DNA of 64,000 bases from an uncultured Bacteroidales bacterium (GTDB lineage Bacteria > Bacteroidota > Bacteroidia > Bacteroidales > VadinHA17). Under the pieces are notes generated by a model. It searched no databases, was not told the DNA's origin, and saw nothing but the letters and a program-made list of their open reading frames with translations. Where the stretch lies: positions 63,855-127,854 of the forward strand of contig CAVOWZ010000020.1 in assembly GCA_963700275.1 (NCBI GenBank). The letters are read 5' to 3'. Shown here piece by piece: positions 4,866-18,798 of this stretch. The position numbers and the translations under genes are program-made. The stretch's first letter is position 1, and every line of letters starts with the position of its first letter.

Positions 4866-6122
4866 ATGCAAATGAAGCTCCTCCTCGCAATGGTCTGCTG
4901 TATTATGATGATCAATCCTCTGTTCGCTCAGAAATATAATATAATTGTTAAGGGCGGCCACGTTATAGATCCTAAAAACAATATTAATGAAGTCATGGAT
5001 ATAGCCGTCAAAGACGGCAGAATAGCCATGGTAGCCAAAAACATTGATCCAAAAGAAGGAATACAGGTAGTGAATGCCGGTGGATTCTATGTAACACCCG
5101 GCCTAATCGACATGCATGTACATGTTTATCAGGGCACTAACCTCGATCAGCAATATATGAACGGCCCGGCTTCGGTAACACCTGACGGTTTTACATTCCG
5201 CGTTGGCGTTACAACAGTTGTTGATGCCGGATGTGCAGGGTGGAGGACCTACCCCGATTTTAAGAAAAATATCATTGACAGATCACAAACACGTGTGCTG
5301 GCCTTCCTCAATATTGTCGGTGACGGAATGAGAGGCGGACCTTTCGAACAGAACCTCAAGGACATGGATCCAAAAGTAACCGGTCAGTATGCAATTAAAA
5401 ACCGGGAGGAGATTGTAGGGATCAAGCTGGCACACTATTCCGGCCATGAATGGGAACCTACTGACCGGACTGTGGAAGCAGGGAAAATCTCAGACATGCC
5501 GGTAATGATCGATTTCGGTGGTGCAGATCCTCCCCTCTCCATCGAAGAACTCTTCATGAAACATCTGCGCCCTGGAGATATTTTCACCCATTGTTTTGCC
5601 CAGCTTGCAAACGGCAGGGAGTATGTTGTTGATCCTGTTGCCGGAAAAGTGAAACCATTCGTATGGGACGCGATCAAAAGAGGTATAATTTTCGATATCG
5701 GTTACGGAGGAATCAGCTTTGCGTACTCCCAGGGTATCCCGGCTGTAAAAAGCGGATTATACCCCCATGTGATAAGTACCGATTTGCACATTGGCAGTAT
5801 GAATGCAGCAATGAAGGATCTTCTTACAACCATGTCAAAATTCCTGGCTATGGGAATGGATCTGCAAAGTGTGATCAAAGCAACAACTTCCGAACCTGCA
5901 CGTGTAATCAAAAAGGAAGAATTAGGCAATCTGTCAGTAGGTTCCGATGCTGACATTACTGTACTGAACCTTAGAAAGGGAAAATTCGGATTATTCGATC
6001 ATACAGGTTATAAACTGGAAGCCGACAAAAAGTTTGAATGTGAAATGACAATCAGAGCCGGCCGGATCGTTTATGACCTCAATGGTATTGCAAATCCCGT
6101 AATAGTATCCGGCAGGAGATAA
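4866..6122 (+). CDS. Exported amidohydrolase/deacetylase-family metallohydrolase (dihydroorotase-like fold), paralog 1
   Basis: Sec-type signal (..MMINPLFAQ). Metal-binding DMHVHV motif, later THCF, FDIGYGG, ISTDLH and GSDADITVLN motifs typical of the amidohydrolase superfamily. Confidence 0.8.
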   Translation: MQMKLLLAMVCCIMMINPLFAQKYNIIVKGGHVIDPKNNINEVMDIAVKDGRIAMVAKNIDPKEGIQVVNAGGFYVTPGLIDMHVHVYQGTNLDQQYMNGPASVTPDGFTFRVGVTTVVDAGCAGWRTYPDFKKNIIDRSQTRVLAFLNIVGDGMRGGPFEQNLKDMDPKVTGQYAIKNREEIVGIKLAHYSGHEWEPTDRTVEAGKISDMPVMIDFGGADPPLSIEELFMKHLRPGDIFTHCFAQLANGREYVVDPVAGKVKPFVWDAIKRGIIFDIGYGGISFAYSQGIPAVKSGLYPHVISTDLHIGSMNAAMKDLLTTMSKFLAMGMDLQSVIKATTSEPARVIKKEELGNLSVGSDADITVLNLRKGKFGLFDHTGYKLEADKKFECEMTIRAGRIVYDLNGIANPVIVSGRR

Positions 6123-6192
6123 TCTTTTTACAATTAATCCAATATAACCATTGTTAACCATGAATAAATCGAGTGTCATAAAAGTATATTTA

Positions 6193-6265
6193 TTACCCCC
6201 TTCCCGGCCTTCCCCCAGGGGGAAGGACACTATTTCCCCCCTGGGGGAAATAAGAAAGGGGGTAA
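6193..6265. repeat. 73-nt G/C-run palindromic element, copy 1
   Basis: ttacccccttcccggccttcccccagggggaaggacactatttcccccctgggggaaataagaaagggggtaa. Its reverse complement matches 14162-14234 at 69/73 positions, and all 4 mismatches fall in the central 11 nt. Confidence 0.85.
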
Positions 6266-6362
6266 AAAATACGAAATAAGAATTGTAGGATAATTTTTTA
6301 TTCCTGAACAAACAAAAATTTAATAAATAACACAATTTATCTCACACTTAAATCAAATTATT

Positions 6363-6827
6363 ATGAAAACTGAAAGAAGATCTGCATTAAAGAAAATGTT
6401 CGCATCTGTTCTGGGTTTGGCCGGAGCAGGAATGGCAGTAAAAGCCGGAACCGGTATTAGGGAAGAAAAAGAGGCTGATAATATAACAAGCTTCCAGAAT
6501 GCCCCCCTGTTCTCGGGCCATACCAAGTTCGGTAATCTGGTATTCGTTGCCGGGAAAGGCGCTCATGTAGAACCATTCACCATCAAGGCTCATACCGAGA
6601 TAGTACTGAAAGAACTTGAGAACGAACTTATTAAAGCCGGTTCCTCTATGGAGAAGGTACTTAAGGTAAACGTTTATCTTAATGATATTGCAGATTACCA
6701 GGGCATGAATGAAGCTTATAAGGGTCGTTTCGGAAGCAAGCCTCCCGTGCGCACAACTGTTGCAGTGGCAAAAGGCGGAGTTCCCGGAAATTCGCTCGTC
6801 GAGATGGATTGCATAGCTTATATTTAA
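6363..6827 (+). CDS. RidA/YjgF/L-PSP-family enamine/imine deaminase with twin-arginine signal
   Basis: N-terminus MKTERRSALKKMFASVLGLAGAGMAV (RR followed by a hydrophobic stretch). Body has RidA-type motifs (VFVAGKGA.., VNVYLNDIADYQGMNEAY.., PVRTTVAV). Confidence 0.85.
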   Translation: MKTERRSALKKMFASVLGLAGAGMAVKAGTGIREEKEADNITSFQNAPLFSGHTKFGNLVFVAGKGAHVEPFTIKAHTEIVLKELENELIKAGSSMEKVLKVNVYLNDIADYQGMNEAYKGRFGSKPPVRTTVAVAKGGVPGNSLVEMDCIAYI

Positions 6828-6840
6828 TAATTTATCAGGT

Positions 6841-8049
6841 ATGAAACGCAGAGAAGCCATAAAAGGTCTTGCCATTCTGCCAGTTGCAGGGGCAGTGCTG
6901 GGCGCATCTTATCCTATAAGTCCGCTCATTGCTGCTCCTCCAAAACGTGATCTGTTCAGTGAGCTTGGATTAAGGAAGTTCATCAATGCAGCGGGCACCT
7001 ATACGTTTATGACGGGATCACTTCTCCCGGAAGAGGTTGTTGAAGCTATGGTGGCTGCTTCAAAAGAATTTGTGCTTCTAGATGATGTTCAGGACAAAGT
7101 TGGTGAGAGAATAGCTGCAATCTGTCATGCAGAAGCCGCTACGGTAACTGCAGGATGCTGGTCGGCAATGGTTCTCGGTACTGCAGGAGTACTGACGGGA
7201 AAAGATCAGAAAAAAATATCACTGCTGCCGGACGTCAGCAGCATGAAATCTGAGGTTATAACCCAGAACAGTCATAACTCGGGCTATGTTCATGCTCTAA
7301 AAAATACAGGTGTAAAAATTGTGGCAGTGGAAACTGCTCAGGAGCTTGAAAATGCAATAAATGAGAAGACAGCCATGCTCTGGTTCCTGAATTATGCTGC
7401 TCCATCAGGGAGTATTCAGCATCAGGAATTTGTAGCTCTGGGCAAAAAACATAATATCCCCGTAATGATCGATATAGCCGCAGATGTACCCCCGGTTGAA
7501 AATCTTTGGAAATACAACGACATGGGATTTGACCTGGTATGCATCTCGGGAGGAAAAGCTTTACGTGGTCCTCAGAGCGCCGGGATCCTGATGGGAAAAA
7601 AGGATCTCATCGAAGCGGCAAGACTGAATGCGCCTCCGCGGGGTGGAAATATCGGCCGTGGTATGAAGGTGAATAAGGAAGAAGTTTTCGGTATGTATGC
7701 AGCTATTGAAAGATATATCAATATCGATCATGAAAAGGAATGGAAGATCTGGGAAGAACGTGTAGCAGTTATTGAAAATGCTGCCAAAAAAGTAAGTGGT
7801 GTAACAACAACTGTCACCGTCCCTCCTATTGCCAATCACACACCCACTCTGACTATTTCGTGGGACATAAACAAGATCAAAGTAACCCGCGAAGAATTCC
7901 AGGACAGGTTACGAAAGGGTATTCCTTCTGTTGAAGTGGTTGCAGGGAAGGATAACAGCATAAACATAACGGTTTTCATGCTGGAACCAAAGCAGGAAAA
8001 GATAGTTGCAGCACGTATCTATGAGGAGCTGAGCAAAGCTTCGTTATGA
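6841..8049 (+). CDS. SelA/DgaE-like PLP-dependent enzyme with twin-arginine signal
   Basis: MKRREAIKGLAILPVAGAVLGA signal. The DLVCISGGKALRGPQSAGILMGKKDLI motif parallels the PLP-lysine region of the L-seryl-tRNA(Sec) selenium transferase family. Confidence 0.75.
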   Translation: MKRREAIKGLAILPVAGAVLGASYPISPLIAAPPKRDLFSELGLRKFINAAGTYTFMTGSLLPEEVVEAMVAASKEFVLLDDVQDKVGERIAAICHAEAATVTAGCWSAMVLGTAGVLTGKDQKKISLLPDVSSMKSEVITQNSHNSGYVHALKNTGVKIVAVETAQELENAINEKTAMLWFLNYAAPSGSIQHQEFVALGKKHNIPVMIDIAADVPPVENLWKYNDMGFDLVCISGGKALRGPQSAGILMGKKDLIEAARLNAPPRGGNIGRGMKVNKEEVFGMYAAIERYINIDHEKEWKIWEERVAVIENAAKKVSGVTTTVTVPPIANHTPTLTISWDINKIKVTREEFQDRLRKGIPSVEVVAGKDNSINITVFMLEPKQEKIVAARIYEELSKASL

Positions 8050-8085
8050 AATATATGACCTGATTGTAGCCTGTTAAGGAAGTTA

Positions 8086-9687
8086 TCAGGTATAGATCAC
8101 CATTTCACGTTCGGCATCCCATCCCATGCCTTTCACGTACATTGTGTACATGCCGGGCTGAGAGAATCCGTCCCAGACGACTTCATGTTTTCCGGGTTCG
8201 AGTCCGTCGGCTTTAAGGTGCCATACGACATCGCCGTAACGGTTCTTAATATCTACATATACATCGCTCTCTTCAGGAACATTCACTTCCATTACGATAC
8301 CGTTCCCGTTATCGGCACCCAGGGCTTTTATTGAGGGCTGGCTGTCGGAAGCGATCTTACCTGTTTTCCATGAAGTGTAATCAAATGGTTCATCAACCAT
8401 GTGATACTGATCTTCGGTCAGTCCGTCATAATTCTTTCTCATATAGAGAGTGAGCAGAGGTGTACGCTTAAAAGTGTCGAGACTGACCTTTTTAGCCTTT
8501 CCGTCCTCCCACAGGTAAACGGGTATGTCAAAAGGATTGAGCACATTGGATACCCCACGTTCGATTCCGATATGGAAGAGTCCGAAATTTCCCGGTTCAT
8601 GGCCTGCCAGCCAGTGGGCAATGATATCCACCCTGAAAGCATCTTTCCCGAAAATTACGTTATTGCTCATAAAATTCATTGGCTTTCCGTTATGAGGACC
8701 ACCTGAAAAACCGTCCCCGTCGCGGCCATAAACACCCTCCACTATATTTATCCCTGTCGGAGCAACACTGTAAGCATCGATCATTCTCTGTATCCAGTGT
8801 TCCATGAAAATACCGCCACCATAAGGCGGTCTCTCCTGGCGACTTTTCCACCTGGGCATCCCCTGATCTTCATGTTTCTTCTGAAGCTCGGTTATTCTGT
8901 CTATATAATCCGGCTGGAAGAACTTATGATAACGCTGGTCATAGGTCTTGAAAATATCATAATGACCGCCGCAGAACTGATGAAATTTTCTGCCTGTCAT
9001 TCCCTGCAGATTCTTAATCGCACCGGTTATCCCCATCTGGTGCGATTTTAGCTTGGCGATATTGATAAGGAAAGTATCTTCAGCAGTCATTGGCGCCATA
9101 AAACCAACTTCCTTGAAAACCACCCCGTCCACCTTCCTGAATAATATATCCCCTTCTGCCAGATCCCAATAGTCTTTTGAGCTGAGTTCCCTCAGGTCAA
9201 AATCATTTCTCTGAGCCATGGCGGTATAACCGGCTGCTTCCCATTGATGGGGACAAGCGCACTCTCTCAGGTAGAATTTTTCAGGACCAAAATTTTTCAC
9301 CGATTTCAGGAATCCTTCAATAAAATTCAGATCTGTGGTTATTCCCAGCTGAGAATCTGGATTTTTCGGATCGATTCTTCCTGTACATGTCCAGTTAGGC
9401 TTGCAGGTTATCCTTGTTGATGAAGGGTAGCCTTTCCCGTCAGTGGTTCTGATGAACATCTCTCCTGCCAGCTTAAATGCGGCATCATGAATTGCCTGCC
9501 TGTCATTGGGAGCAGAGGCTGATGTCAGATTAATAAAAACAGCTTCAGGATGTTCCTTAATAAAAGGATGAAGGTCAAAACCCTGACCGCTCATCCCGTA
9601 AGCACCTGAAACAGGATTGTATGCCGGATTAATAAGTCCCATTACTCCTGCTGCTGAAGAGACTTTAATGAAGTCGCGTCTTTTCAT
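8086..9687 (-). CDS. DUF362-domain protein with twin-arginine signal and C-terminal Ig-like beta-sandwich
   Basis: MKRRDFIKVSSAAGVMGL signal. DUF362-type motifs CKPNW and AKLKSHQMGITGAIKNLQG. The C-terminal ~80 aa (..EPGKHEVVWDGFSQPGMYTMYV..) resembles FlgD-Ig / T9SS-CTD-like sandwiches. Confidence 0.7.
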   Translation of the reverse strand: MKRRDFIKVSSAAGVMGLINPAYNPVSGAYGMSGQGFDLHPFIKEHPEAVFINLTSASAPNDRQAIHDAAFKLAGEMFIRTTDGKGYPSSTRITCKPNWTCTGRIDPKNPDSQLGITTDLNFIEGFLKSVKNFGPEKFYLRECACPHQWEAAGYTAMAQRNDFDLRELSSKDYWDLAEGDILFRKVDGVVFKEVGFMAPMTAEDTFLINIAKLKSHQMGITGAIKNLQGMTGRKFHQFCGGHYDIFKTYDQRYHKFFQPDYIDRITELQKKHEDQGMPRWKSRQERPPYGGGIFMEHWIQRMIDAYSVAPTGINIVEGVYGRDGDGFSGGPHNGKPMNFMSNNVIFGKDAFRVDIIAHWLAGHEPGNFGLFHIGIERGVSNVLNPFDIPVYLWEDGKAKKVSLDTFKRTPLLTLYMRKNYDGLTEDQYHMVDEPFDYTSWKTGKIASDSQPSIKALGADNGNGIVMEVNVPEESDVYVDIKNRYGDVVWHLKADGLEPGKHEVVWDGFSQPGMYTMYVKGMGWDAEREMVIYT

Positions 9688-9780
9688 GAATTTTCTTCTA
9701 TATTTATTTCAATTTAGATTTCTGTATTTATATTAACATCTGTAAGCCTGATATGTTTACCCACTCCTGAGAAATTCACG

Positions 9781-11388
9781 TCAGGTTGCAAGCGGTTGGC
9801 CTTTGGGAAATCTGATCTGTCTTCTGGCTCCCCTGTAATTATTACGGCTTGCTTTAAAGCTTGCATTAATATATTCACCCATATAAATTTGTCCGGTAAT
9901 TGTATCTCCCGAGAGAGTTCCCGAGAATATGAACGGTACATTATCAGCTATCATGCGTTCAGAGCTGCTAAGTTTAACAAGGTCTCCCTCGATGGTACCA
10001 ACCATTTCCCGGAATGAAAAATCTCCCTTATGGGAACCCTGTATCCAGTTACCATCCTGTTCAAGAATAAAAGTGTGCTGACTCCTGCTGCTGTAGAACT
10101 CAATATCGACAGTCCATCTCCCGGTAATATCCCCGGCAGGAGGAGCCATTTCTTTTGGTTTCGGATATTGCTTTGACAGCAGTTCAAATATCCGGTCAGC
10201 AGCGATCTTATCATTTCCGGGCTGCATCTGGCCGGATGTCACACGTAACGAAGTTGTCTTTTCCTGTTCATTATTTCCACTGTGAACCGCAATTCTTGGT
10301 TTGGTTTGTGCAAGCATCTCCGCGATCTCAGGCCCTGTAATATTAAATTTTGCTGGATCCCATGAAATGAGTATCCAGGGGCTCCTGTTATTAAGGTCGG
10401 TTGGTTCCCTTAATGTAACCTTTACTCCGTTGATCGCCGAAACACGTTTGGTAATTGTATCAAGATATCCCATCCATGTTCTGTATTTCTCCTCATGATC
10501 ACGCTTGACCCAGGCCTCGACAGCTGCCAGCATTCCAAGCATTTCCTCCTTACCGACTTTATTGTCCCGTCCTGTCCCATGATGTGGTGAACTGGCCTGC
10601 CATGCCGACATCAGGATATCTTTCCTTCCCAGGAGTAATCCTGCGCACTGAGGGCCGCAAATAGCTTTCCCTCCGCTGTAGGCCACAACGGTGGCTCCTG
10701 CCTGAAGATGAACATTCGGTATCGTAAGGTCTTCAGCTGCAGCATCAACAAGAAATGGTATGTTTAACGGCTTTGCAAGAGCGGCAATCTTATCAATGGC
10801 AAATTTATTTCCGGGAAGTGTATCATTTCCTGTCATTACATATATCATTGCTGTCCGCCCGTTCAGCGCCTTGCCCAGCTCTTCAAGAGTATCAACGGTA
10901 ATGATTGTAACACCGATGTTCCTTATTGCGTGATCATATGCATTCCTTGAACTTCTGGGTATAACCACCTCGGTCTTGTCAAAGCCTGAAAGATCAGGAA
11001 TGCGTACCAGCTTTTCGGGGTTGCCACCTGCAACACAGGCCGATGTAACATGCTTCATACCGGCGGCACAGCCTGCTGATATCATCCCCCACTCAGCTTT
11101 TGTAAGCTCGGCGAGTCTCCTCCCGATCCCAAGCGCCAGCTCATCATACTGAACAAAGAAACCAGAAGCAGCATGCATGGCTTCAACAACTTCCGGCCTT
11201 TCTATCGATCCACCGATAATTGTAAATGTTCCCACACAGTTTATAACAGGTTCCACTCCTATCGACTGGTAAATATTCTGCCCCGGCTCAATCTGCCCGT
11301 TGACGGGAGATAATACTGCCTCAAGGGGCCGGAAGCCTCCGGCAAACGGTAGAATTGTCAAACTCTTAATGATGTCTCTTCGTTCCAT
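9781..11388 (-). CDS. SelA/DgaE-like PLP-dependent enzyme with twin-arginine-type signal and an extra ~130-aa C-terminal domain
   Basis: MERRDIIKSLTILPFAGG N-terminus. VVAYSGGKAICGPQCAGLLLGRKDIL PLP-lysine motif. Paralog of 6841..8049 with a beta-rich C-terminal extension. Confidence 0.75.
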   Translation of the reverse strand: MERRDIIKSLTILPFAGGFRPLEAVLSPVNGQIEPGQNIYQSIGVEPVINCVGTFTIIGGSIERPEVVEAMHAASGFFVQYDELALGIGRRLAELTKAEWGMISAGCAAGMKHVTSACVAGGNPEKLVRIPDLSGFDKTEVVIPRSSRNAYDHAIRNIGVTIITVDTLEELGKALNGRTAMIYVMTGNDTLPGNKFAIDKIAALAKPLNIPFLVDAAAEDLTIPNVHLQAGATVVAYSGGKAICGPQCAGLLLGRKDILMSAWQASSPHHGTGRDNKVGKEEMLGMLAAVEAWVKRDHEEKYRTWMGYLDTITKRVSAINGVKVTLREPTDLNNRSPWILISWDPAKFNITGPEIAEMLAQTKPRIAVHSGNNEQEKTTSLRVTSGQMQPGNDKIAADRIFELLSKQYPKPKEMAPPAGDITGRWTVDIEFYSSRSQHTFILEQDGNWIQGSHKGDFSFREMVGTIEGDLVKLSSSERMIADNVPFIFSGTLSGDTITGQIYMGEYINASFKASRNNYRGARRQIRFPKGQPLAT

Positions 11389-11432
11389 ACTTTTTATTCT
11401 TAAATTTATTTTATAAGATCACTAACATTCTT

Positions 11433-12701
11433 TTAAAATTTTATCCCCTGGTTATCAATCCGTTTACCTGCTGAAATGCCATTCTGATCATAAACAATTC
11501 TCCCACCCCGGATGGTCAGCTCCGTCTCTATCCTCCTGTCTCCGTTCAGTCTGGTGCCACCAGTATCAATAAATCCAAAGGTACCTTTTCTTATTCTGAA
11601 AACAGCAATATCTGCATCAGATCCTTCGCTTAACTGTCCCAGATCCTCACGTTTGACAGATAATGCCGAATTCCATGTAGCCCGGAAAATGATATCCTCA
11701 AAGGTCATTCCCATATTCAGGTATTTCGACATGATATCGAGCATATTTTTCATACCGGAATTCATACTGGAACGGTGAAGGTCTGATCCGAAGGAATCCG
11801 GAAGAAGCCCCTGCCTGAGCGCTGGTATTGCCACATCGAAATGAAACATTCCCCCGCCGTGTCCCACATCAAACCTTATCCCTTTTTTCTTTGCTTCTGC
11901 AACGCAGGGCCTAATCTTTCCTTTCTCGTCGAGAATACAGGTTCTGTCGGAAGCCACGCAAAAAGAATGTGTGTAAATATCTCCCGGGTTCATTCGTTTA
12001 AGAATTTCTTCAAGGGGAAGCAAAGGCAGGTGGCATTCCACAAGGAGTGGAACTCCGGCAATCTGAGCCGCTTCCGCAGCCCTGTCAAACGGTATCCATT
12101 CACTTCCCCTGTAATGGCCAATCTTAATACCGACAATGACTTCCGGATACTGATCTGCAACAATTGAGGTCATCCGGGCATCCATATCATTAATATCCTC
12201 CTCTGTGGGGAATCCTGTCATACCGGAACCGGCAATATTCAGAAATGCAAGGACCCTTGTCAGTGAACGGTCAATAACCTGCTTCTTAAATACGGGGAAA
12301 TTCCTCCAGCCCGAAGTCCCGGCATCAACAACTGTTGTAATCCCTGCTTTAAAGGTGAAGTCATCGGGGGACACGCTCGAAAATCCATCTGCAAAACCCT
12401 GATTTGATCCCACAAATACATGGGTATGAATATCGATGAGCCCCGGTGTTACATACAGATCTTTTACATCAATAACTTTTTTTGCATCTGAGGGGCTGAT
12501 ATCCGGAGCTATACGAATTATTTTACCTCCGGCAACTGCCACATCCATCTGTGAATCAATATTGTTTTTTGGATCAATAACGTGACCGCCTTTAAGAAGA
12601 ATATCTATCTGCTGCGAACTGACTGGTCCTGTAAAAGAAACAATGAAGTAAATGACCACTAAAATGATCCTGAAAATTCCTGAAATATCCTTTTTCATCA
12701 T
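11433..12701 (-). CDS. Exported amidohydrolase/deacetylase-family metallohydrolase, paralog 2
   Basis: The start is moved to the MMKKD.. ATG at 12701, which removes the overlap with the upstream stop at 12716. TM/signal segment, then IDILLKGGHVIDP.., DIHTHV, FDVGHGG, GSDADIAVF. Confidence 0.8.
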   Translation of the reverse strand: MMKKDISGIFRIILVVIYFIVSFTGPVSSQQIDILLKGGHVIDPKNNIDSQMDVAVAGGKIIRIAPDISPSDAKKVIDVKDLYVTPGLIDIHTHVFVGSNQGFADGFSSVSPDDFTFKAGITTVVDAGTSGWRNFPVFKKQVIDRSLTRVLAFLNIAGSGMTGFPTEEDINDMDARMTSIVADQYPEVIVGIKIGHYRGSEWIPFDRAAEAAQIAGVPLLVECHLPLLPLEEILKRMNPGDIYTHSFCVASDRTCILDEKGKIRPCVAEAKKKGIRFDVGHGGGMFHFDVAIPALRQGLLPDSFGSDLHRSSMNSGMKNMLDIMSKYLNMGMTFEDIIFRATWNSALSVKREDLGQLSEGSDADIAVFRIRKGTFGFIDTGGTRLNGDRRIETELTIRGGRIVYDQNGISAGKRIDNQGIKF

Positions 12702-12715
12702 CTTTACAGCAGTTG

Positions 12716-13993
12716 TTAAGGAACGGCATCCCATAAAAGTGATCCAATACCATTAAGGTCCCATACTATTCTCCCTGAGCGTATTGTCAGTTCAGCTTCA
12801 AGCTTCTGACTCCCCTTCATTTTTGTTCCGCGGACATCGGTAAAACCGAACTCACCCTTTCGCAGGCTGAAAACGGCAATATCAGCCTCTGAACCTTCTC
12901 TCAGGTTAGCAAGGTCGGTCCTCTTAATGGCTTTTGCCGGATTCAGGGTGGCACGCCTGATGACATCCTGCAGGGGCAGTCCCATATTCAGGAATTTCGA
13001 CAAGAGGTTAGCCATATCTTTCATTCCGCTGTTCATGCTTCCGGTATGAAGATCGGAGCTTATAACATCTGCAATAAAACCCTGCTGAACCGATGGGATA
13101 GCCTGTTTCCAGTGAAATGCACCGCCTCCGTGGCCTACATCAAAGATTATTCCTCTTTTCTGAGCTTCGAAAATAAAAGGTTTTACCCTTCCCTTCTCAT
13201 CAACAGGCACCTCACGGTCCTTCGGAGCATTGGCATAGGTGTGGGTCCAGATATCACCGGGCCTCAGATGTTTCATAAAGAGTTCCTCAATCGGCAATGG
13301 CGGCTGATGTTCTCCGAGATCGACCATTACGGGAACATTTGCAAGCCTTCCTGCCTCCACGGCAAGGTCTACCTGTGTAAAATCGGGTCCCCAGTAATGT
13401 GCCGACTTAACACCAACAATAATGTCGGGAAATAATCTGTTGATCATGTAAGCAGCCATTACAGGATTCATATCATTTACATCCTGTTCTTCAAATCTTC
13501 CATACATACCCGACCCGACAATATTAAGGAAAGCAAGTATTCTTGTACGTGATCTGTCTATTGTCTGTTCCTTGAATTTCCGGAAATTCCGCCATCCGGC
13601 CGATCCTGCATCAACAACCGTGGTCACCCCTGCTCTGAAAGTAAAACCATCCGGGGGCAGCGCATCCCAGCCATCAGCAATATATGATCCCGGATCGGTT
13701 CCATGGAATGCATGAACATGCATATCAATCAGTCCCGGAGTCACATACATTCCTCTTACATCAATTACTTTAGCTGCATTGTCTGCAGGTATATCAGGAG
13801 CAACACGGAAGATCTTATCCTTAACTATGGCCACGTCCATCGGAGCGTCAATATTGCCTGCAGGATCTATAACGTGCCCTCCCTTCAGAAGGATATCAAT
13901 AGCCTGTCCAAAAGATGGCGAAGTTCCCTGATAACACCAAAACACTGGCAGCACCAGAGCTATCCTTAATAGTGATGAATAGCATTTCTTCAT
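12716..13993 (-). CDS. Exported amidohydrolase/deacetylase-family metallohydrolase, paralog 3
   Basis: The start is moved to MKKCYSSLL.. (ATG at 13993). Signal peptide, then IDILLKGGHVIDP.., DMHVHA, FDVGHGG, GSEADIAVF. It is in tandem with paralog 2. Confidence 0.8.
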   Translation of the reverse strand: MKKCYSSLLRIALVLPVFWCYQGTSPSFGQAIDILLKGGHVIDPAGNIDAPMDVAIVKDKIFRVAPDIPADNAAKVIDVRGMYVTPGLIDMHVHAFHGTDPGSYIADGWDALPPDGFTFRAGVTTVVDAGSAGWRNFRKFKEQTIDRSRTRILAFLNIVGSGMYGRFEEQDVNDMNPVMAAYMINRLFPDIIVGVKSAHYWGPDFTQVDLAVEAGRLANVPVMVDLGEHQPPLPIEELFMKHLRPGDIWTHTYANAPKDREVPVDEKGRVKPFIFEAQKRGIIFDVGHGGGAFHWKQAIPSVQQGFIADVISSDLHTGSMNSGMKDMANLLSKFLNMGLPLQDVIRRATLNPAKAIKRTDLANLREGSEADIAVFSLRKGEFGFTDVRGTKMKGSQKLEAELTIRSGRIVWDLNGIGSLLWDAVP

Positions 13994-14161
13994 TCGTAAA
14001 AGTTTATTTTCGCTTATCACATTGGAAATCGCGAATATTTGCAGGTAAGCAAAACAAATGAGCAATAAAGATAACATAATTACACAGATTTTATATTTTT
14101 ACAATTCAGTAAGATAAAATGCATCATGATTTATCAGCCAAAGACCTTCAACTTTATATAC

Positions 14162-14234
14162 TTACCCCCTTTCTTATTTCCCCCAGGGGGGAAAAGTTCT
14201 CCTTCCCCCTGGGGGAAGGCCGGGAAGGGGGTAA
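14162..14234. repeat. 73-nt G/C-run palindromic element, copy 2 (inverted relative to copy 1)
   Basis: ttaccccctttcttatttcccccaggggggaaaagttctccttccccctgggggaaggccgggaagggggtaa. It equals the reverse complement of 6193-6265 except for 4 central positions. Confidence 0.85.
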
Positions 14235-14303
14235 TTAATATTCTTTTGAAACATTTGAATAAAATAATTTAATATCATAGAATCCATAAATAATACAACT
14301 AAT

Positions 14304-15179
14304 ATGAAGAAATTAACAAGACGTCAGTTTATAGGCAGAAGCGCCCTCGGGATAGGCTCAGCTTTTGTTGCTTCGCATATTCCAATGGACCTTAAAGCCG
14401 GTTCATTGGCAAGACCTGTCAGATATCCTCTTGGCTTCCAGGTATGGACAATAAAGGACCAGCTTATCAAAGATTTTGCTGGAACACTTAAAATGATGGC
14501 CGGCATGGGGTATAAAAGTGTTGAAATGTGTTCTCCTCCCGGATATGAGAGTTCAGGATTTGGTCCGTTAATGAAAATGTCAGGAAAAGAAATGCGCAAA
14601 ATAATGAATGACCTCGGTTTGCAGTTTGAGAGCACGCATTATGGCATGAATGAACTCAGGAATAACCTTGATGAGCGTATAAAGTTCGCTTCAGAATCGG
14701 GACAGAAGCAAATGATCCTTTCCAGCTTCGGATTGCCAAAGGATGCCACAATGAGCGACTGGATGAAAGCTGCTGATGAACTGAATAAAATAGGTGAAAG
14801 AACAAAGAAAGCAGGTATCCAGACCGGATTCCATAATCATCACACAGAATTTACGAAGATCGATAATGTGCTGATATATGATGCACTGCTCAGGCAGTTC
14901 GATCCCGAACTTGTGAAAATGCAGTTCCAGGTTGCAGTGATCAGTATCGGCATTAAAGCTGCAGATTACTTTAATAAATATCCCGGAAGATTCATTTCGG
15001 CTCACCTCGCTGATTATTCGGTTCTCGAGGAGAAAAGTGTTCCCCTCGGAAAGGGTATCGTAGACTGGAAAGAATTCTTTGATTCAACAAACAAGGGTGG
15101 AGTAAAGAATGTCTTTATTGAGATGGATCCGGCAACCTTCAAGGAGAGCGCTCAGTTTATTCAGAATCTGCAGTATTGA
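14304..15179 (+). CDS. Xylose-isomerase-like TIM-barrel protein (sugar phosphate isomerase/epimerase family) with twin-arginine signal
   Basis: MKKLTRRQFIGRSALGIGSAFVAS signal. TIM-barrel family pattern (GYKSVEM.., GFHNHHTEF..). Confidence 0.8.
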   Translation: MKKLTRRQFIGRSALGIGSAFVASHIPMDLKAGSLARPVRYPLGFQVWTIKDQLIKDFAGTLKMMAGMGYKSVEMCSPPGYESSGFGPLMKMSGKEMRKIMNDLGLQFESTHYGMNELRNNLDERIKFASESGQKQMILSSFGLPKDATMSDWMKAADELNKIGERTKKAGIQTGFHNHHTEFTKIDNVLIYDALLRQFDPELVKMQFQVAVISIGIKAADYFNKYPGRFISAHLADYSVLEEKSVPLGKGIVDWKEFFDSTNKGGVKNVFIEMDPATFKESAQFIQNLQY

Positions 15180-15180
15180 T

Positions 15181-15316
15181 TCCAGGTTCCAGGCCTTGCC
15201 AGCCGAAGCCTTGGCGAAGGCTGGTTTCAGGTTTCACATGCAGGGCCTCGGCAAAGGCTCCCCTCCAGGGAGAGCCTGTCCCGCGAAAGCGGGAGGATGG
15301 GGGTGGGTTTTTTAGG
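15181..15316. repeat. GC-rich multi-hairpin intergenic element ending in a terminator-like hairpin
   Basis: ccagcc(15199-15204)/ggctgg(15219-15224); ctccc..gggag; cccgc-gaaa-gcggg (15280-15293), followed by a G-rich tract and a T-run at 15308-15313. It contrasts strongly with the flanking AT-rich DNA. Confidence 0.45.
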
Positions 15317-15402
15317 CGCAGAGATTAGTGCTCAGTCTTGAAATAGAAGCATGGAACCTTAGACTATAAACATCAAGTTAAATTAATACAACTTAATTCT
15401 CT

Positions 15403-16539
15403 ATGAAGAAATTATTAACCTTCGCAGCATTATGTCTGTTGGTTTCATGTAACAGCATTGAAAAAACAAAAATACCCTGTTATGCCTGGCTTAGCGGTCC
15501 GGGAAATGCCACTGATGCTGAACTGGAAGCAAATTTCAACGATTTAAAGGCCAAAGGAATAGACGGATTGATGTATTCAGGGGGACAGGATCCGGAAACC
15601 TATAAAAGGGTAGGAAAGCTTGTTAAAAAAGCAGGAATGGAATTTCATACCTGGATACCGACACTTGTACAGAACCCCCGGCCTGAGCTTAAACCGGAAT
15701 TGTATGCAGTGAACGGACTCGGGGAATCAGCTTACGACAAGCCTGCTTACGTCGATCATTATAAGTTCCTGTGCCCAAACCGTGAAGAAGTCTATCAGTT
15801 CCTCGAAAATATGTATGGAAAAATTGCAGATATTCCGGAAGTTGATGGCATTCATCTCGATTTTATAAGATTCCCTGATGTAATCCTCGCTCCTGGTCTC
15901 TGGGAAAAATACGGGCTTGTAATGGACAGGGAATTTCCTCAGTTTGACTACTGTTATTGCGATAAATGTTTGACAGATTTTAAGGCAAAAACAGGAATTG
16001 ATATTAAGTCGGTGCCTGATCCCTCCGCCGTACCGGAATGGAAACAGTTCCGCTATGACCTTATAACTGATATGGTTAACCGGCTTACTGTTATGGTTCA
16101 TTCGAAAAATAAACAGATGAATGCTGCTGTTTTTCCGGGACCGAATTCAATTGCGAAAAAAATAGTCAGACAGGAGTGGGATAAATGGGATATTGATGCC
16201 TTCTTCCCTATGAATTACAATGATTTTTACCTGGAAGGACCTGAATGGATAGGAGAAGTATCAAAAGAAGCGGTAATGACAATCAATAATTCCAAACCTG
16301 TTTACAGCGGATTATTCATCTGTCCGGAACCGGAGAAGAAAGCTTCAGAAAAGGATCCTGAAAATCATGGTCTTGTACCCGGAGAGCTCGAAGCAGCAAT
16401 AAGGGAATCAATGGAGAACGGATCTGCAGGTATCTGCTTATTTACACCAGACAGGATGACTTCAGAGGGCTGGAAAATATTTGAGAAGGCAATCCGGACA
16501 AAATATGTAAACAAAATCTTCCCGTCCGAAGAGTATTGA
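15403..16539 (+). CDS. Lipoprotein, glycoside-hydrolase-like GHL10 (YngK-like) TIM-barrel family
   Basis: Lipobox ..LLVSCNS. The GIHLDFIRFPD motif is typical of the GHL10 family. Assignment comes from motif recall only. Confidence 0.5.
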   Translation: MKKLLTFAALCLLVSCNSIEKTKIPCYAWLSGPGNATDAELEANFNDLKAKGIDGLMYSGGQDPETYKRVGKLVKKAGMEFHTWIPTLVQNPRPELKPELYAVNGLGESAYDKPAYVDHYKFLCPNREEVYQFLENMYGKIADIPEVDGIHLDFIRFPDVILAPGLWEKYGLVMDREFPQFDYCYCDKCLTDFKAKTGIDIKSVPDPSAVPEWKQFRYDLITDMVNRLTVMVHSKNKQMNAAVFPGPNSIAKKIVRQEWDKWDIDAFFPMNYNDFYLEGPEWIGEVSKEAVMTINNSKPVYSGLFICPEPEKKASEKDPENHGLVPGELEAAIRESMENGSAGICLFTPDRMTSEGWKIFEKAIRTKYVNKIFPSEEY

Positions 16540-16619
16540 GTTAAACAGGAAATAACCGGATGATGAAATACCTTTCAGTCAGGAGGTAGCTCACTTTCAA
16601 TAAATTTTGTTGGGTACTA

Positions 16620-16976
16620 ATGATAAAATACTACAGATCTGCTTCAGGACAGGTAATAGCGGAATTAACAGATGAAACAGAAAAAATCGTCGAAGTCGGG
16701 GATATCCTTGATATGATCGCTGAAATTGGCCAGAATGACTGCGGTGCCCTGATAATACGCGATTCTGCTTTAAACAAAGATTTTTTTGATCTTAAAACCG
16801 GATTTGCCGGTGAGATCCTTCAGAAATTCTCAAATTACAGGGTCAGACTGGCAATTACAGGAGATTTTTCGAAATATCCGGGTAAAAGCCTCAATGATTT
16901 TATCCGGGAATGTAACCGTGGGAATCAGATATTCTTTGTCCCGTCAGCCGGGGAAGCCCTAATCAGGTTAGGATAA
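16620..16976 (+). CDS. DUF4180-domain protein
   Basis: The motif series ..GEILQKFSNYRVRLAITGDFSKY..SLNDFIRECNRGNQIFFV matches my recollection of the DUF4180 family. Confidence 0.55.
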   Translation: MIKYYRSASGQVIAELTDETEKIVEVGDILDMIAEIGQNDCGALIIRDSALNKDFFDLKTGFAGEILQKFSNYRVRLAITGDFSKYPGKSLNDFIRECNRGNQIFFVPSAGEALIRLG

Positions 16977-16994
16977 ACATAAATTGAAGGAGTA

Positions 16995-17732
16995 ATGGAA
17001 AAGGGGGGAAATCAGAATACAGGTATATTGAAGAAAATAAGGACGTTCATTGAGATAGTGATCTCGATGGCCGGATTTGTTCCACACAGTGCTACCTTTT
17101 TCAGGATAATCATTATGGCAGCTTCCCTTGGGTTTTCATTTTACCTTACAATTTATAATCCTCTCAATCACGGGATAGCAATAATATATTTTATTCTTGC
17201 GGAAATTCTCTATCTCGGTTTTATATCATCTGTGCTTCCGGAGAACGGATTGCGCCATTGGTTCATGCGGAAATGGGGTGATGAAAAGAAAGGGTACCGT
17301 GCTTTTGAAACCATTCTTGGATTTCTGTTTTTTCATAATGGTGCAAGCATTGGTTATATAGCATCTTCTTCACCGGGTACATTATTTAACATTGATGACA
17401 GAGGTGTAATTTTCCTGTTCCTGCCGATTCTCATTGCCTTCGGGTTCATTATAAAAATATGGGCAGCAAAGGTGGTTTCTGTGGATATTTATTACTGGAA
17501 GGATATGTTCCTCGGGAGGAAGATCTGCGATTTCGCTGTAACCGGTCCTTATAAATACTTCAGCAACCCGATGTATGGTATCGGCCAGCTCCCGGCATAT
17601 GCAAGCGCTTTATGGTACGGATCTAAAATCGGGCTGATTGCAGCTGTTGTGAATCAGCTTCTTATTTTTACATTTTATTTCCTCGCCGAAAAGAAATTCA
17701 TTAAAAGGGTCTACCTGAGTGAAGGGAAATAA
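16995..17732 (+). CDS. Polytopic membrane protein, ICMT/PEMT-like methyltransferase family
   Basis: Multiple TM helices. The C-terminal GPYKYFSNPMY motif resembles the isoprenylcysteine carboxyl / phospholipid methyltransferase signature. Confidence 0.45.
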   Translation: MEKGGNQNTGILKKIRTFIEIVISMAGFVPHSATFFRIIIMAASLGFSFYLTIYNPLNHGIAIIYFILAEILYLGFISSVLPENGLRHWFMRKWGDEKKGYRAFETILGFLFFHNGASIGYIASSSPGTLFNIDDRGVIFLFLPILIAFGFIIKIWAAKVVSVDIYYWKDMFLGRKICDFAVTGPYKYFSNPMYGIGQLPAYASALWYGSKIGLIAAVVNQLLIFTFYFLAEKKFIKRVYLSEGK

Positions 17733-17856
17733 CTTCAACAACCACACATAAAAACTACGTATTAAAATACGTTTCTTAATACATATTATAATACGTAGAT
17801 AATATGCCTGTTACCACATCCGTTCTTAACGCCTTATTACCTTAACGCCGCAATAC

Positions 17857-17888
17857 GTAATGCCGTAATGCCGTAATGCCGTAATACC
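17857..17888. repeat. 8-nt tandem array (GTAATGCC x3 + GTAATACC)
   Basis: gtaatgcc gtaatgcc gtaatgcc gtaatacc, read directly. It is preceded by degenerate tacgta-containing copies from about 17750 onward. Confidence 0.85.
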
Positions 17889-17906
17889 TAAGACACCTTC
17901 CTTCCT

Positions 17907-17946
17907 CTGTGCCACTGCGCCCCTGCGCCGCTGTGCCTCTGCGCCC
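17907..17946. repeat. 8-nt tandem array (CTGYGCCN x5)
   Basis: ctgtgcca ctgcgccc ctgcgccg ctgtgcct ctgcgccc. It abuts the stop codon (17947-17949) of the minus-strand TIM-barrel gene. Confidence 0.85.
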
Positions 17947-18798
17947 TTATTTACACGCCATCACCCCTTTGAAGTATCCGATCGACTCGGCTATTCCTGC
18001 AGCAGGGTCTTTCATATCTTTTTCAAATTCAAGGCTGCATTTGCCGGTATATCTGATCTTACGAAGGGTAGCCACAAATCCCGGGATATCAATTACTCCC
18101 CTTCCCATTTCCAGGGTTTTGCCCTCTTTTGACGGTTTATCAACATCCTTTATATGAATGTCATAAATACGGTTTTTATATTTTAAAATGTCAACAGAGG
18201 GATTCTGGCCGTCGCGGGTTGTATGACCGATATCGATACATATTCCAATACGCGGGTCGAGGTCCTTTATATGATTCCAGATATCAGTTGCATTCGGATA
18301 AAGTGGATTATCCGGCCCATGATTATGAATAGCCAGTTTGAAGTCATACTCTTTTATTTTCTGCTCTACATACGGAAGCAGTTCGGTATTCGGAGCCCCA
18401 ACGATCATTTTAACTCCGGCCATCTTTGCATATTCGAAAGCCTGGTCAACTGATTCTTTTGTTCTCATATAAACAACTCCTACCGTGTAAACATTGATAC
18501 CTGCACTTTTTAATTTGACGATAGTCTCTTCAATTTTCTCACGGGTGCTGTTCAGAGGAAGATGCATTTCCTTAAGTGAGAGATTGGTCACTCCTACCCT
18601 TTTCATTATCTCAATCATTTTATCAAGACTAAGCTGGGCAAAAGTGAAACCTGCCATTCCTATTTCAAAGGAATCCTTCGATGCAAATTTCTTCGGCGGC
18701 ACGGGGCCTGAAGCTGATGCATAAACCGGAGAAATACCTGCTGCCAGGAGACCTGCTCCCGACAGTTTTAAAAACTGACGACGTGATTTCATAGTCAC
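17947..18798 (-). CDS. Xylose-isomerase-like TIM-barrel protein with canonical twin-arginine signal
   Basis: MTMKSRRQFLKLSGAGLLAAGISPVYASA (SRRQFLK). AIHNHGPD.. and CIDIGH.. are TIM-barrel family motifs. Confidence 0.8.
   Translation of the reverse strand: MTMKSRRQFLKLSGAGLLAAGISPVYASASGPVPPKKFASKDSFEIGMAGFTFAQLSLDKMIEIMKRVGVTNLSLKEMHLPLNSTREKIEETIVKLKSAGINVYTVGVVYMRTKESVDQAFEYAKMAGVKMIVGAPNTELLPYVEQKIKEYDFKLAIHNHGPDNPLYPNATDIWNHIKDLDPRIGICIDIGHTTRDGQNPSVDILKYKNRIYDIHIKDVDKPSKEGKTLEMGRGVIDIPGFVATLRKIRYTGKCSLEFEKDMKDPAAGIAESIGYFKGVMACK

Follow-up and report, generated by a model that had tools for sequence, protein, structure and literature searches.

A small gene of the Rid family lies in a 64,000-nucleotide stretch of DNA from an uncultured Bacteroidales bacterium of the VadinHA17 lineage (assembly GCA_963700275.1, contig CAVOWZ010000020.1, positions 63,855 to 127,854 of the forward strand), which we call the window. 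Its product is probably a periplasmic imine/enamine hydrolase with a cleavable leader of the twin-arginine type, acting as the dedicated partner of adjacent exported pyridoxal 5'-phosphate (PLP)-dependent ammonia-lyases similar to DgaE. The open reading frame (ORF) encodes a Rid fold with Arg130 behind a twin-arginine (RR) leader that is translated and under selection, the gene is associated with a lyase gene and an amidohydrolase gene, and the Rid and the lyase co-occur across genomes.

The Rid gene and its predicted product

The gene and its parts are as follows.

6363-6827, plus strand: Rid-family gene encoding a 154-residue precursor (ORF translation, PF01042, AlphaFold2 and Foldseek)
6363-6446, plus strand: predicted signal peptide, residues 1-28 (RR invariance, Arg codon switches, score of the hydrophobic (h) region, TatP expression, predicted local distance difference test (pLDDT) below 50)
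6447-6494, plus strand: variable stretch of residues 29-44 that links the leader to the Rid core (poor conservation in homologs, low pLDDT, Pfam match from residue 49)
6750-6752, plus strand: CGC codon of Arg130, the equivalent of RidA Arg105 (invariant in 36/36 clade members and aligned with the PAR/PVR motif of solved RidA proteins)

The product of 6363-6827 matched PF01042 (Rid/YjgF/L-PSP) with 67.7 bits over residues 49-153, which is above the Pfam gathering score of 27.3. The AlphaFold2 monomer model, whose first ~45 residues are disordered and whose core has a pLDDT of 93-98, shows the chorismate-mutase-like alpha/beta fold of solved Rid proteins, and its core superposes in Foldseek on RutC, Rv2704, YabJ and plant RidA (target-normalised TM score 0.77-0.88, E ~1e-11). 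In the alignment of 36 members of the exported clade described below, R130 and N116 are kept in all and E147 is retained in 30, and the Tyr17 position, Phe in the window protein, holds Phe in 21 members and Tyr in 10. In the E. coli numbering of RidA and TdcF, we take N116 to be Asn88, E147 to be Glu120 and this Phe to stand at the position of Tyr17. Imine deaminase activity requires the Arg105 equivalent, which occurs in RidA and Rid1-3, and Rid proteins are homotrimers whose active sites lie between subunits. The family match, the fold and the alignment confirm the window Rid as a real Rid-family protein with the catalytic Arg. Thus, the family identity proposed in an earlier reading of the sequence (the initial annotation) stands, and the loss of the Arg, which it had named as a way for its proposal to fail, is not seen. 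As for activity, we infer an imine deaminase.

It is very unlikely that the Rid lacks deaminase activity and instead forms a subunit with no catalytic role, binds a ligand or serves as a stress-activated envelope holdase. The equivalents of Arg105, Asn88 and Glu120 are conserved in a clade whose members outside the close homologs are 37-64% identical, as a maintained carboxylate-binding active site predicts, and deaminase chemistry is in keeping with so tight a link to a PLP enzyme that performs beta-elimination. On the other hand, several activities have been reported for the Rid family, the window protein scores under the curated RidA cut-off, and the replacement of the Tyr17 equivalent by Phe weighs against its reading as an imine hydrolase.

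Translation of the leader and the export route

To survey loci, we scanned one genome per species with a 6-sequence alignment as the query and obtained 80 loci in at least four phyla, 52 of them from Bacteroidota, 25 from Acidobacteriota and one each from Ktedonobacteraceae, Streptomyces and Rhodohalobacter. An RR leader is present in 65 of the 72 Rid orthologs at these species loci, and none of 17 relatives with 38-64% identity differs at either leader Arg. These genome loci were used instead of a leader survey of 50%-identity representatives, which was uninformative, about one third of them being fragments or mis-started metagenome ORFs.

The initial annotation had pointed out that a downstream Met start would remove the RR region. 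A start at Met12 or Met24, which would leave the protein cytoplasmic, is hardly credible, and the sequence evidence refutes it. Of 120 close database homologs, 118 have the leader; the other two are gene calls that begin at Met12 (P0037, P0062), and these are what speaks for such a start. At the DNA level in 29 Bacteroidota orthologs, conservation at positions 1, 2 and 3 of codons 1-11 is 0.73, 0.91 and 0.71, against 0.46 in the 60 nt upstream of the ATG, and both Arg codons alternate synonymously between AGA and CGC, CGT or CGA. The synonymous switching of the twin Arg indicates that selection acts on the amino acid and not on the nucleotides, and together with the coding-type conservation of codons 1-11 it rejects a downstream start. 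Moreover, a start at Met12 would leave a functionless hydrophobic N-terminus, and the length of the extension is as expected from the comparison with cytoplasmic RidA.

The predicted signal peptide has its twin Arg (AGA AGA, 6375-6380) in the n-region, then an h-region rich in Gly and Ala, and lastly V-K-A before a G. Judged by eye, V-K-A/G is the likely signal-peptidase site, with cleavage after residue 28; K27, a basic residue of the c-region, lies before this site, where most relatives have A-x-A. R5-R6 followed by S-A-L-K fits RR.[FGAVML][LITMVF], the default expression of TatP for leaders of the twin-arginine translocation (Tat) system (PMC1182353). The same expression is matched by 117 of 120 close Rid homologs, by 0-6% of the members in four Sec-type neighbour families and by 2/13 in a fifth. 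Measured as the best 12-residue Kyte-Doolittle mean, the hydrophobicity of the h-region is 1.78 in the window Rid versus 2.15-3.16 in the Sec and lipoprotein leaders of the window. The medians are 1.85 for the Rid clade and 1.64 for the lyase, both of which have Gly/Ala/Ser/Thr-rich h-regions, and the Sec-type leaders of the amidohydrolase, CBM9-like, pyrroloquinoline quinone (PQQ)-dehydrogenase, RraA-like and PF14588 neighbour families score 2.4-2.7. TatC is encoded in the window's genome (228 bits), and TIGR01409 and TIGR02811 are matched by 6/36 and 9/36 clade members, respectively, which are distant, non-Bacteroidota members with canonical leaders.

Several observations count against Tat as the route. 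The Tat hidden Markov models (HMMs) PF10518 and TIGR01409, applied to the first 45 residues, gave no match to the window Rid leader even at E <=10; under the same models lyase 2 of the window gave no match and lyase 1 a sub-threshold one, and the DUF362 protein and two TIM barrels of the window passed. The Rid motif has Ala at the consensus Phe position, five clade members carry plainly Sec-like leaders, and some RR leaders are documented to be Sec-dependent, for example in B. subtilis (PMC1182353). The same points would favour export of the Rid by Sec, or a leader that stays uncleaved as an anchor on the outer face of the inner membrane; this is unlikely, and the pairing with the lyase would hold in either case. 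Against it, neither Arg of the pair varies and their codons switch synonymously, whereas Lys is tolerated in the n-regions of Sec leaders; in hydrophobicity the h-region is well below the neighbouring Sec leaders; the h-region leads into a small-x-small site, V-K-A here and A-x-A in relatives; and distant orthologs have canonical Tat motifs. Since the HMMs miss the window leader, the case for Tat is built on conservation, codons, hydrophobicity and the TatP expression. Export of the Rid is well supported by these features of the leader, and Tat is the probable route. The Tat signal of the initial annotation is therefore kept with reservation: the conserved RR leader, the TatP fit, the low hydrophobicity and TatC are in its favour, and the lack of PF10518 and TIGR01409 matches and the few Sec-type clade members are not.

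An exported clade apart from the housekeeping RidA

The window's genome also holds a canonical leaderless RidA (a 125-residue ORF with 145.8 bits to PF01042), and four other Bacteroidota genomes likewise have a canonical RidA besides the exported Rid. The presence of this separate RidA suggests that the exported Rid is an additional paralog serving another compartment. A maximum-likelihood tree separates the exported clade from canonical RidAs, taken from six genomes, by a 99/91 branch; its bootstrap is not fully settled, and its exported polytomy includes two long-branch PF14588 lipoproteins. The best NCBIfam model for the window Rid, TIGR00004 (RidA), gives 61.9 bits, below its curated cut-off of 106.25, so that the protein falls outside this family as curated; the best of the 36 clade members reaches E = 1.4e-23. 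The alignment to RidA subfamilies, which had been recommended as a check, thus finds the active-site Arg in place and yet a separate clade. The tree and the model scores indicate that the window Rid is a member of a distinct exported clade and not a housekeeping RidA. The window's genome has a single exported Rid and only two lyases.

Other exported or multidomain Rid proteins were also seen. Further Rid paralogs with Sec or lipoprotein leaders occur in soil Bacteroidota (L093, L094, L095, L109-L111, L114), and a second Rid-like lipoprotein (PF14588) is found in 13 of the 80 loci, for example at L040:4695-5294. Two paralogs with Sec or lipoprotein leaders nest in the canonical RidA clade, so that Rid export has come about more than once. 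Proteins of ~400 residues have three Rid domains per chain and about half of them carry Sec-type leaders (P0152, P0154, P0172, P0180, P0182 and ~40 more); they may represent the Rid trimer fused into one chain. Tandem double (~270 residues) and triple (381 residues) forms exist within the exported clade as well (P0124, P0274, P0275). A search among longer proteins found no Rid-lyase fusion. Two singleton ORFs, P0285 (566 residues) and P0286 (320 residues), combine a cog3964 amidohydrolase and a Rid domain in one frame; they represent either genuine, rare fusions or gene calls that read through in high-GC contigs.

Conserved pairing with the lyase and the amidohydrolase

The partners of the Rid gene in the window are listed here.

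4866-6122, plus strand: cog3964-type amidohydrolase/deacetylase 1 with a Sec-type leader (NF006689 445 bits from residue 23; leader h-region 3.09)
6841-8049, plus strand: DgaE/SelA-like PLP enzyme 1 of 402 residues with an RR leader, starting MKRREAIK (PF03841 39.8 bits, TIGR01437 170.7 bits)
9781-11388, minus strand: DgaE/SelA-like PLP enzyme 2 of 535 residues with an RR leader and an extra ~130-residue C-terminal domain (the only other family member in the genome)

The Rid gene has a TAA stop whose last base is 6827, and the next ATG follows at 6841, which agrees with the 13-nt gap to a SelA-like PLP gene given in the initial annotation. This neighbour, to which it had assigned a Tat signal, does carry an RR leader, and the RR after the initial MK is invariant in 36 relatives. 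PLP enzyme 1 is the probable direct partner of the Rid. A survey of how often SelA-like genes accompany RR-bearing Rid homologs had also been suggested, and in the 80 loci 38 of the 72 Rid orthologs have a DgaE-like gene within 100 bp, and 60 have one within 5 kb. For 55/72 there is also a cog3964 amidohydrolase gene no more than 5 kb away, several of the exceptions being at contig ends. In Bacteroidota, the lyase is the immediate downstream gene for 34 of 56 Rid genes and is present in 49 of the 52 loci, usually adjacent to the Rid.

Co-occurrence was examined in one evenly drawn sample of 400 Bacteroidota genomes (Rid at E <= 1e-25, TIGR01437 at E <= 1e-20). The Rid was found in 9 genomes and a TIGR01437 match in 10, and all nine Rid genomes are among those ten; the tenth, without a Rid, has a weak match of 74.8 bits. 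In 9/9 genomes the Rid and the lyase are on one contig, ~3 kb apart at most. The association across the sampled genomes is essentially complete, though the nine genomes belong to five families and this kinship inflates the count somewhat. The module is patchy, being present in ~2% of the sampled Bacteroidota species, and it was not found in seven sampled genomes of the window's own order.

At two loci outside Bacteroidota and Acidobacteriota, those of Streptomyces yanii (L083), a Gram-positive actinomycete, and of Ktedonobacteraceae (L075) in the Chloroflexota, there are Rid and lyase genes both with RR leaders, and the S. yanii locus has the amidohydrolase as well, also with an RR motif. One Bacteroidota genome carries three tandem exported Rid copies (G388:C2:358393-359842) and four DgaE-like genes. 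Cultured carriers include Chitinophaga filiformis DSM 527 (L056), Spirosoma fluviale DSM 29961 (L034) and Mucilaginibacter roseus (L018).

These counts bear on another possible partner. The Rid might serve imines from exported flavin or PQQ dehydrogenases, as in the LAO1/LAO2 pair of Chlamydomonas or DauA-Rid2 of Pseudomonas, with adjacency to the lyase reflecting shared regulation only. We consider this quite unlikely: the block of the window has no such oxidoreductase, the flavin adenine dinucleotide (FAD) enzyme and the PQQ enzyme occur in 6/52 and 26/52 Bacteroidota loci versus 49/52 for the lyase, and the gene that co-occurs at the genome level (9/9) is the lyase. In its favour, genes for FAD oxidoreductases with Tat leaders and for PQQ dehydrogenase-cytochrome c fusions recur in some loci, and the sole described extracytoplasmic Rid pairs with an amino-acid oxidase. 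The pairing with the exported lyase remains our preferred reading. The idea that enamines are handled outside the cytoplasm is thus supported insofar as the coupling to an exported PLP enzyme is conserved, and the Rid is better read as a hydrolase dedicated to a pathway than as a defence against general enamine stress.

Comparison of the lyase with DgaE

Salmonella DGL (DgaE), an ammonia-lyase acting on D-glucosaminate-6-phosphate, has a strictly conserved His162-His163 pair, of which His163 protonates C-3 on the enzyme so that the imine and not the enamine is released, and the H163A variant releases the enamine (PMC9529869). The substrate phosphate has been modelled near Arg301, Arg332 and Arg346 of DGL and the carboxylate near Arg226 (PMC9529869). 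The exported lyases resemble DGL in that a profile of 36 of them matches 7LC0 over the full length (E = 3.7e-64) within the same fold-type family. In all 36 the RR and the PLP lysine K239, which is aligned with the lysine of SGAKAF in 7LC0, are invariant, and the position of Arg226 is Lys or Arg in 30.

On the other hand, the exported lyases have no conserved His in the His-His loop (N, A, G or I instead), His being found at column 184 in 3/36 and at column 181 in 6/36 in a loop whose alignment is uncertain. The positions of Arg301, Arg332 and Arg346 are occupied by T/S, V/G/N and W/Y, respectively, and the RR leader is a further difference. Lyase 1 is below the curated cut-offs of NF047797 (137.6 vs 600 bits) and TIGR01437 (170.7 vs 385.3 bits). 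These DgaE cut-offs were exceeded in 0/401 Bacteroidota genomes, and no cytoplasmic DgaE was found in the sampled Bacteroidota. Moreover, the dga operon as described comprises a phosphotransferase system, DgaE and the DgaF aldolase with no Rid gene named (PMC9529869), whereas the exported lyases sit beside a Rid.

Because the His pair and the phosphate-binding Arg are unconserved and the scores are below the cut-offs, the exported enzymes are not DGL in the strict sense, and the replacement of the phosphate-binding Arg suggests an unphosphorylated substrate, as expected outside the cytoplasm. Comparison with DGL suggests that the exported lyase may release an enamine/imine that the Rid would finish. 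A difficulty for this reading is that the His-His loop is flexible and uncertainly aligned, and the proton donor could be another residue.

Proposed pathway and substrate

In the proposed mechanism, the exported cog3964 amidohydrolase would deacylate an N-acyl D-2-amino-3-hydroxy acid, and the lyase would eliminate the 3-hydroxyl of the product. Without the on-enzyme proton donor of true DgaE, the lyase would release an enamine/imine, which the Rid trimer would convert to a 2-keto-3-deoxy acid and ammonia. The Rid step may both speed the flux and protect the exported PLP enzymes.

The following genes recur near the Rid in the 80 loci.

CBM9-like protein, exported: 38/80 loci
PQQ glucose/sorbosone-type dehydrogenase fused to cytochrome c, exported: 26 loci, all Bacteroidota
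RraA-like aldolase, exported: 23/80 loci
BASS/SBF carrier: 16/80 loci
SusC/SusD pair (SusD counted), exported: 13/80 loci
second Rid-like lipoprotein (PF14588), exported: 13/80 loci

This recurrent neighbour set fits a single amino-sugar route. In such a wider route, an amino sugar would be oxidised to an aldonic acid and then deacetylated, and a Rid-assisted beta-elimination and deamination would give a 2-keto-3-deoxy acid that would be cleaved by an aldolase or imported. We tentatively suggest oxidised amino sugars, such as N-acetyl-glucosaminate, as the substrate, though D-serine- or D-threonine-type substrates derived from N-acyl D-amino acids are possible alternatives. Two observations speak against the amino-sugar substrate: the PQQ dehydrogenase-cytochrome c of 26/52 Bacteroidota loci was not found by a query search in the window's genome, which is 80% complete, and the RraA-like aldolases of this genome sit away from the block. 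Three such paralogs were located there (G000:C8:220558-221475, C19:326989-327846 and C6:230047-230973), and they are 39-64% identical to the exported form at L010.

As a whole, it is conceivable, if rather doubtful, that soil and freshwater Bacteroidota, Acidobacteriota and others have a periplasmic route for N-acyl D-2-amino-3-hydroxy acids. In this route a Tat-exported PLP beta-eliminase would have lost its proton donor, a co-exported Rid would take the enamine/imine, and the keto acid would pass to an exported RraA-like aldolase or a BASS-type carrier.

Relation to known Rid systems

A literature search found neither a RidA that bacteria place in the periplasm or export by Tat nor a PLP or DgaE-like enzyme exported by Tat, and on the substrates of cog3964 it found nothing directly relevant. 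The Rid-family survey of Niehaus et al. leaves signals and the periplasm unmentioned. The claim of an undescribed role is therefore upheld for the bacterial literature searched and is narrowed by a eukaryotic case, as LAO2/RIDA (the M-beta subunit) of Chlamydomonas works with the periplasmic L-amino-acid oxidase LAO1 (PMC10805672, PMC5053998). Like the window Rid, LAO2/RIDA is a non-cytosolic Rid beside an imine-releasing enzyme; it differs in being eukaryotic, in having a flavin oxidase and not a PLP lyase as its partner and in targeting that is not Tat, and it is likened here at the family level. Organelle-targeted eukaryotic RidA proteins, namely chloroplast RidA (5hp7) and mitochondrial Mmf1 (3quw), are likewise targeted paralogs additional to the cytosolic function. 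Thus, an extracytoplasmic Rid is known as a kind, but the exported bacterial clade and its PLP partner are not known from the literature searched.

Among bacterial proteins, TdcF of the threonine dehydratase operon, RutC of pyrimidine utilisation and OngD are, like the window Rid, small Rid proteins whose genes neighbour that of an enamine- or imine-releasing enzyme. They share the Arg105 equivalent and the fold with it, RutC (3v4d) being the top Foldseek match, whereas they are cytoplasmic and leaderless and the window Rid has an RR leader and belongs to a clade of its own. Housekeeping RidA proteins (E. coli and Salmonella RidA, B. subtilis YabJ and Pyrococcus PH0854) share the Arg, Asn and Glu equivalents, and PH0854 is the best Protein Data Bank sequence match of the window Rid (E = 1.2e-12). 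Compared with them, the window Rid has an N-terminal extension of ~40 residues and Phe for Tyr17.

The Ong pathway for oxidised chitin offers a comparable pathway logic. In Pseudoalteromonas prydzensis, ongD, a gene of the RidA family, has been shown by genetics to be essential for the cytoplasmic N-acetyl-glucosaminate pathway, and OngB and OngC, annotated as a D-aminoacylase and a D-amino-acid deaminase, are both stated to be cytoplasmic (PMC9537276). OngD likewise follows a deacetylase and a deaminase on an amino-sugar acid. The difference is one of location, since the Rid, the lyase and the amidohydrolase of the window all have leaders. By analogy, the window module may be a periplasmic counterpart of the Ong pathway, the resemblance being in pathway logic only.

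Other features of the window

The Rid gene and its partners belong to a block (about 4866-18798) whose enzymes all have leaders. These are of the Sec type in three cog3964 amidohydrolase/deacetylase paralogs, RR leaders in the two DgaE-like PLP enzymes, and canonical Tat leaders in a DUF362 protein and in two TIM barrels resembling xylose isomerase; the block also encodes a GHL10-like lipoprotein. The remaining features are as follows.

8086-9687, minus strand: DUF362 protein with a canonical Tat leader (PF04015; TIGR01409 20.5 bits vs a cut-off of 16.7)
11433-12734 and 12716-14077, minus strand: two more cog3964 amidohydrolase paralogs with Sec-type leaders (NF006689 418 and 434 bits), whose true starts are probably internal Met codons and not the listed ones
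6169-6265, no strand assigned: repeat arm of 97 nt immediately upstream of the Rid gene, with an inverted copy at 14162-14258 (repeat search, 89% complementary)

The inverted repeat pair flanks seven genes, from the Rid through the third amidohydrolase. Scans for a sigma-70-type promoter, a terminator and the Bacteroidetes -7 motif TAnnTTTG gave no match in the 240 nt that separate the Rid gene from the gene upstream. The C-terminal domain of PLP enzyme 2 (9781-10230, minus strand) has no Pfam match; long lyase forms of 540-560 residues recur at L013, L015-L017, L021, L022, L039, L049 and L050.

Implications

The names of these proteins in the databases are generic: the Rid is deposited as a 'RidA family protein', and the nearest structural relatives of the lyase as 'putative selenocysteine synthase'. 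The pair makes a clear prediction, namely that the lyase alone would yield an enamine and its non-stereospecific protonation, which the Rid would correct. The module also points to an uncharacterised periplasmic catabolic pathway in many environmental bacteria, and it would contribute one of the rare cases in which Tat exports a PLP enzyme. If the reading holds, this would be the first case of reactive-enamine handling by bacteria outside the cytoplasm. Rid biology has so far been framed on cytoplasmic and organellar PLP metabolism, and a conserved exported clade tied to a PLP lyase that is likewise exported would carry this framework into the bacterial envelope.

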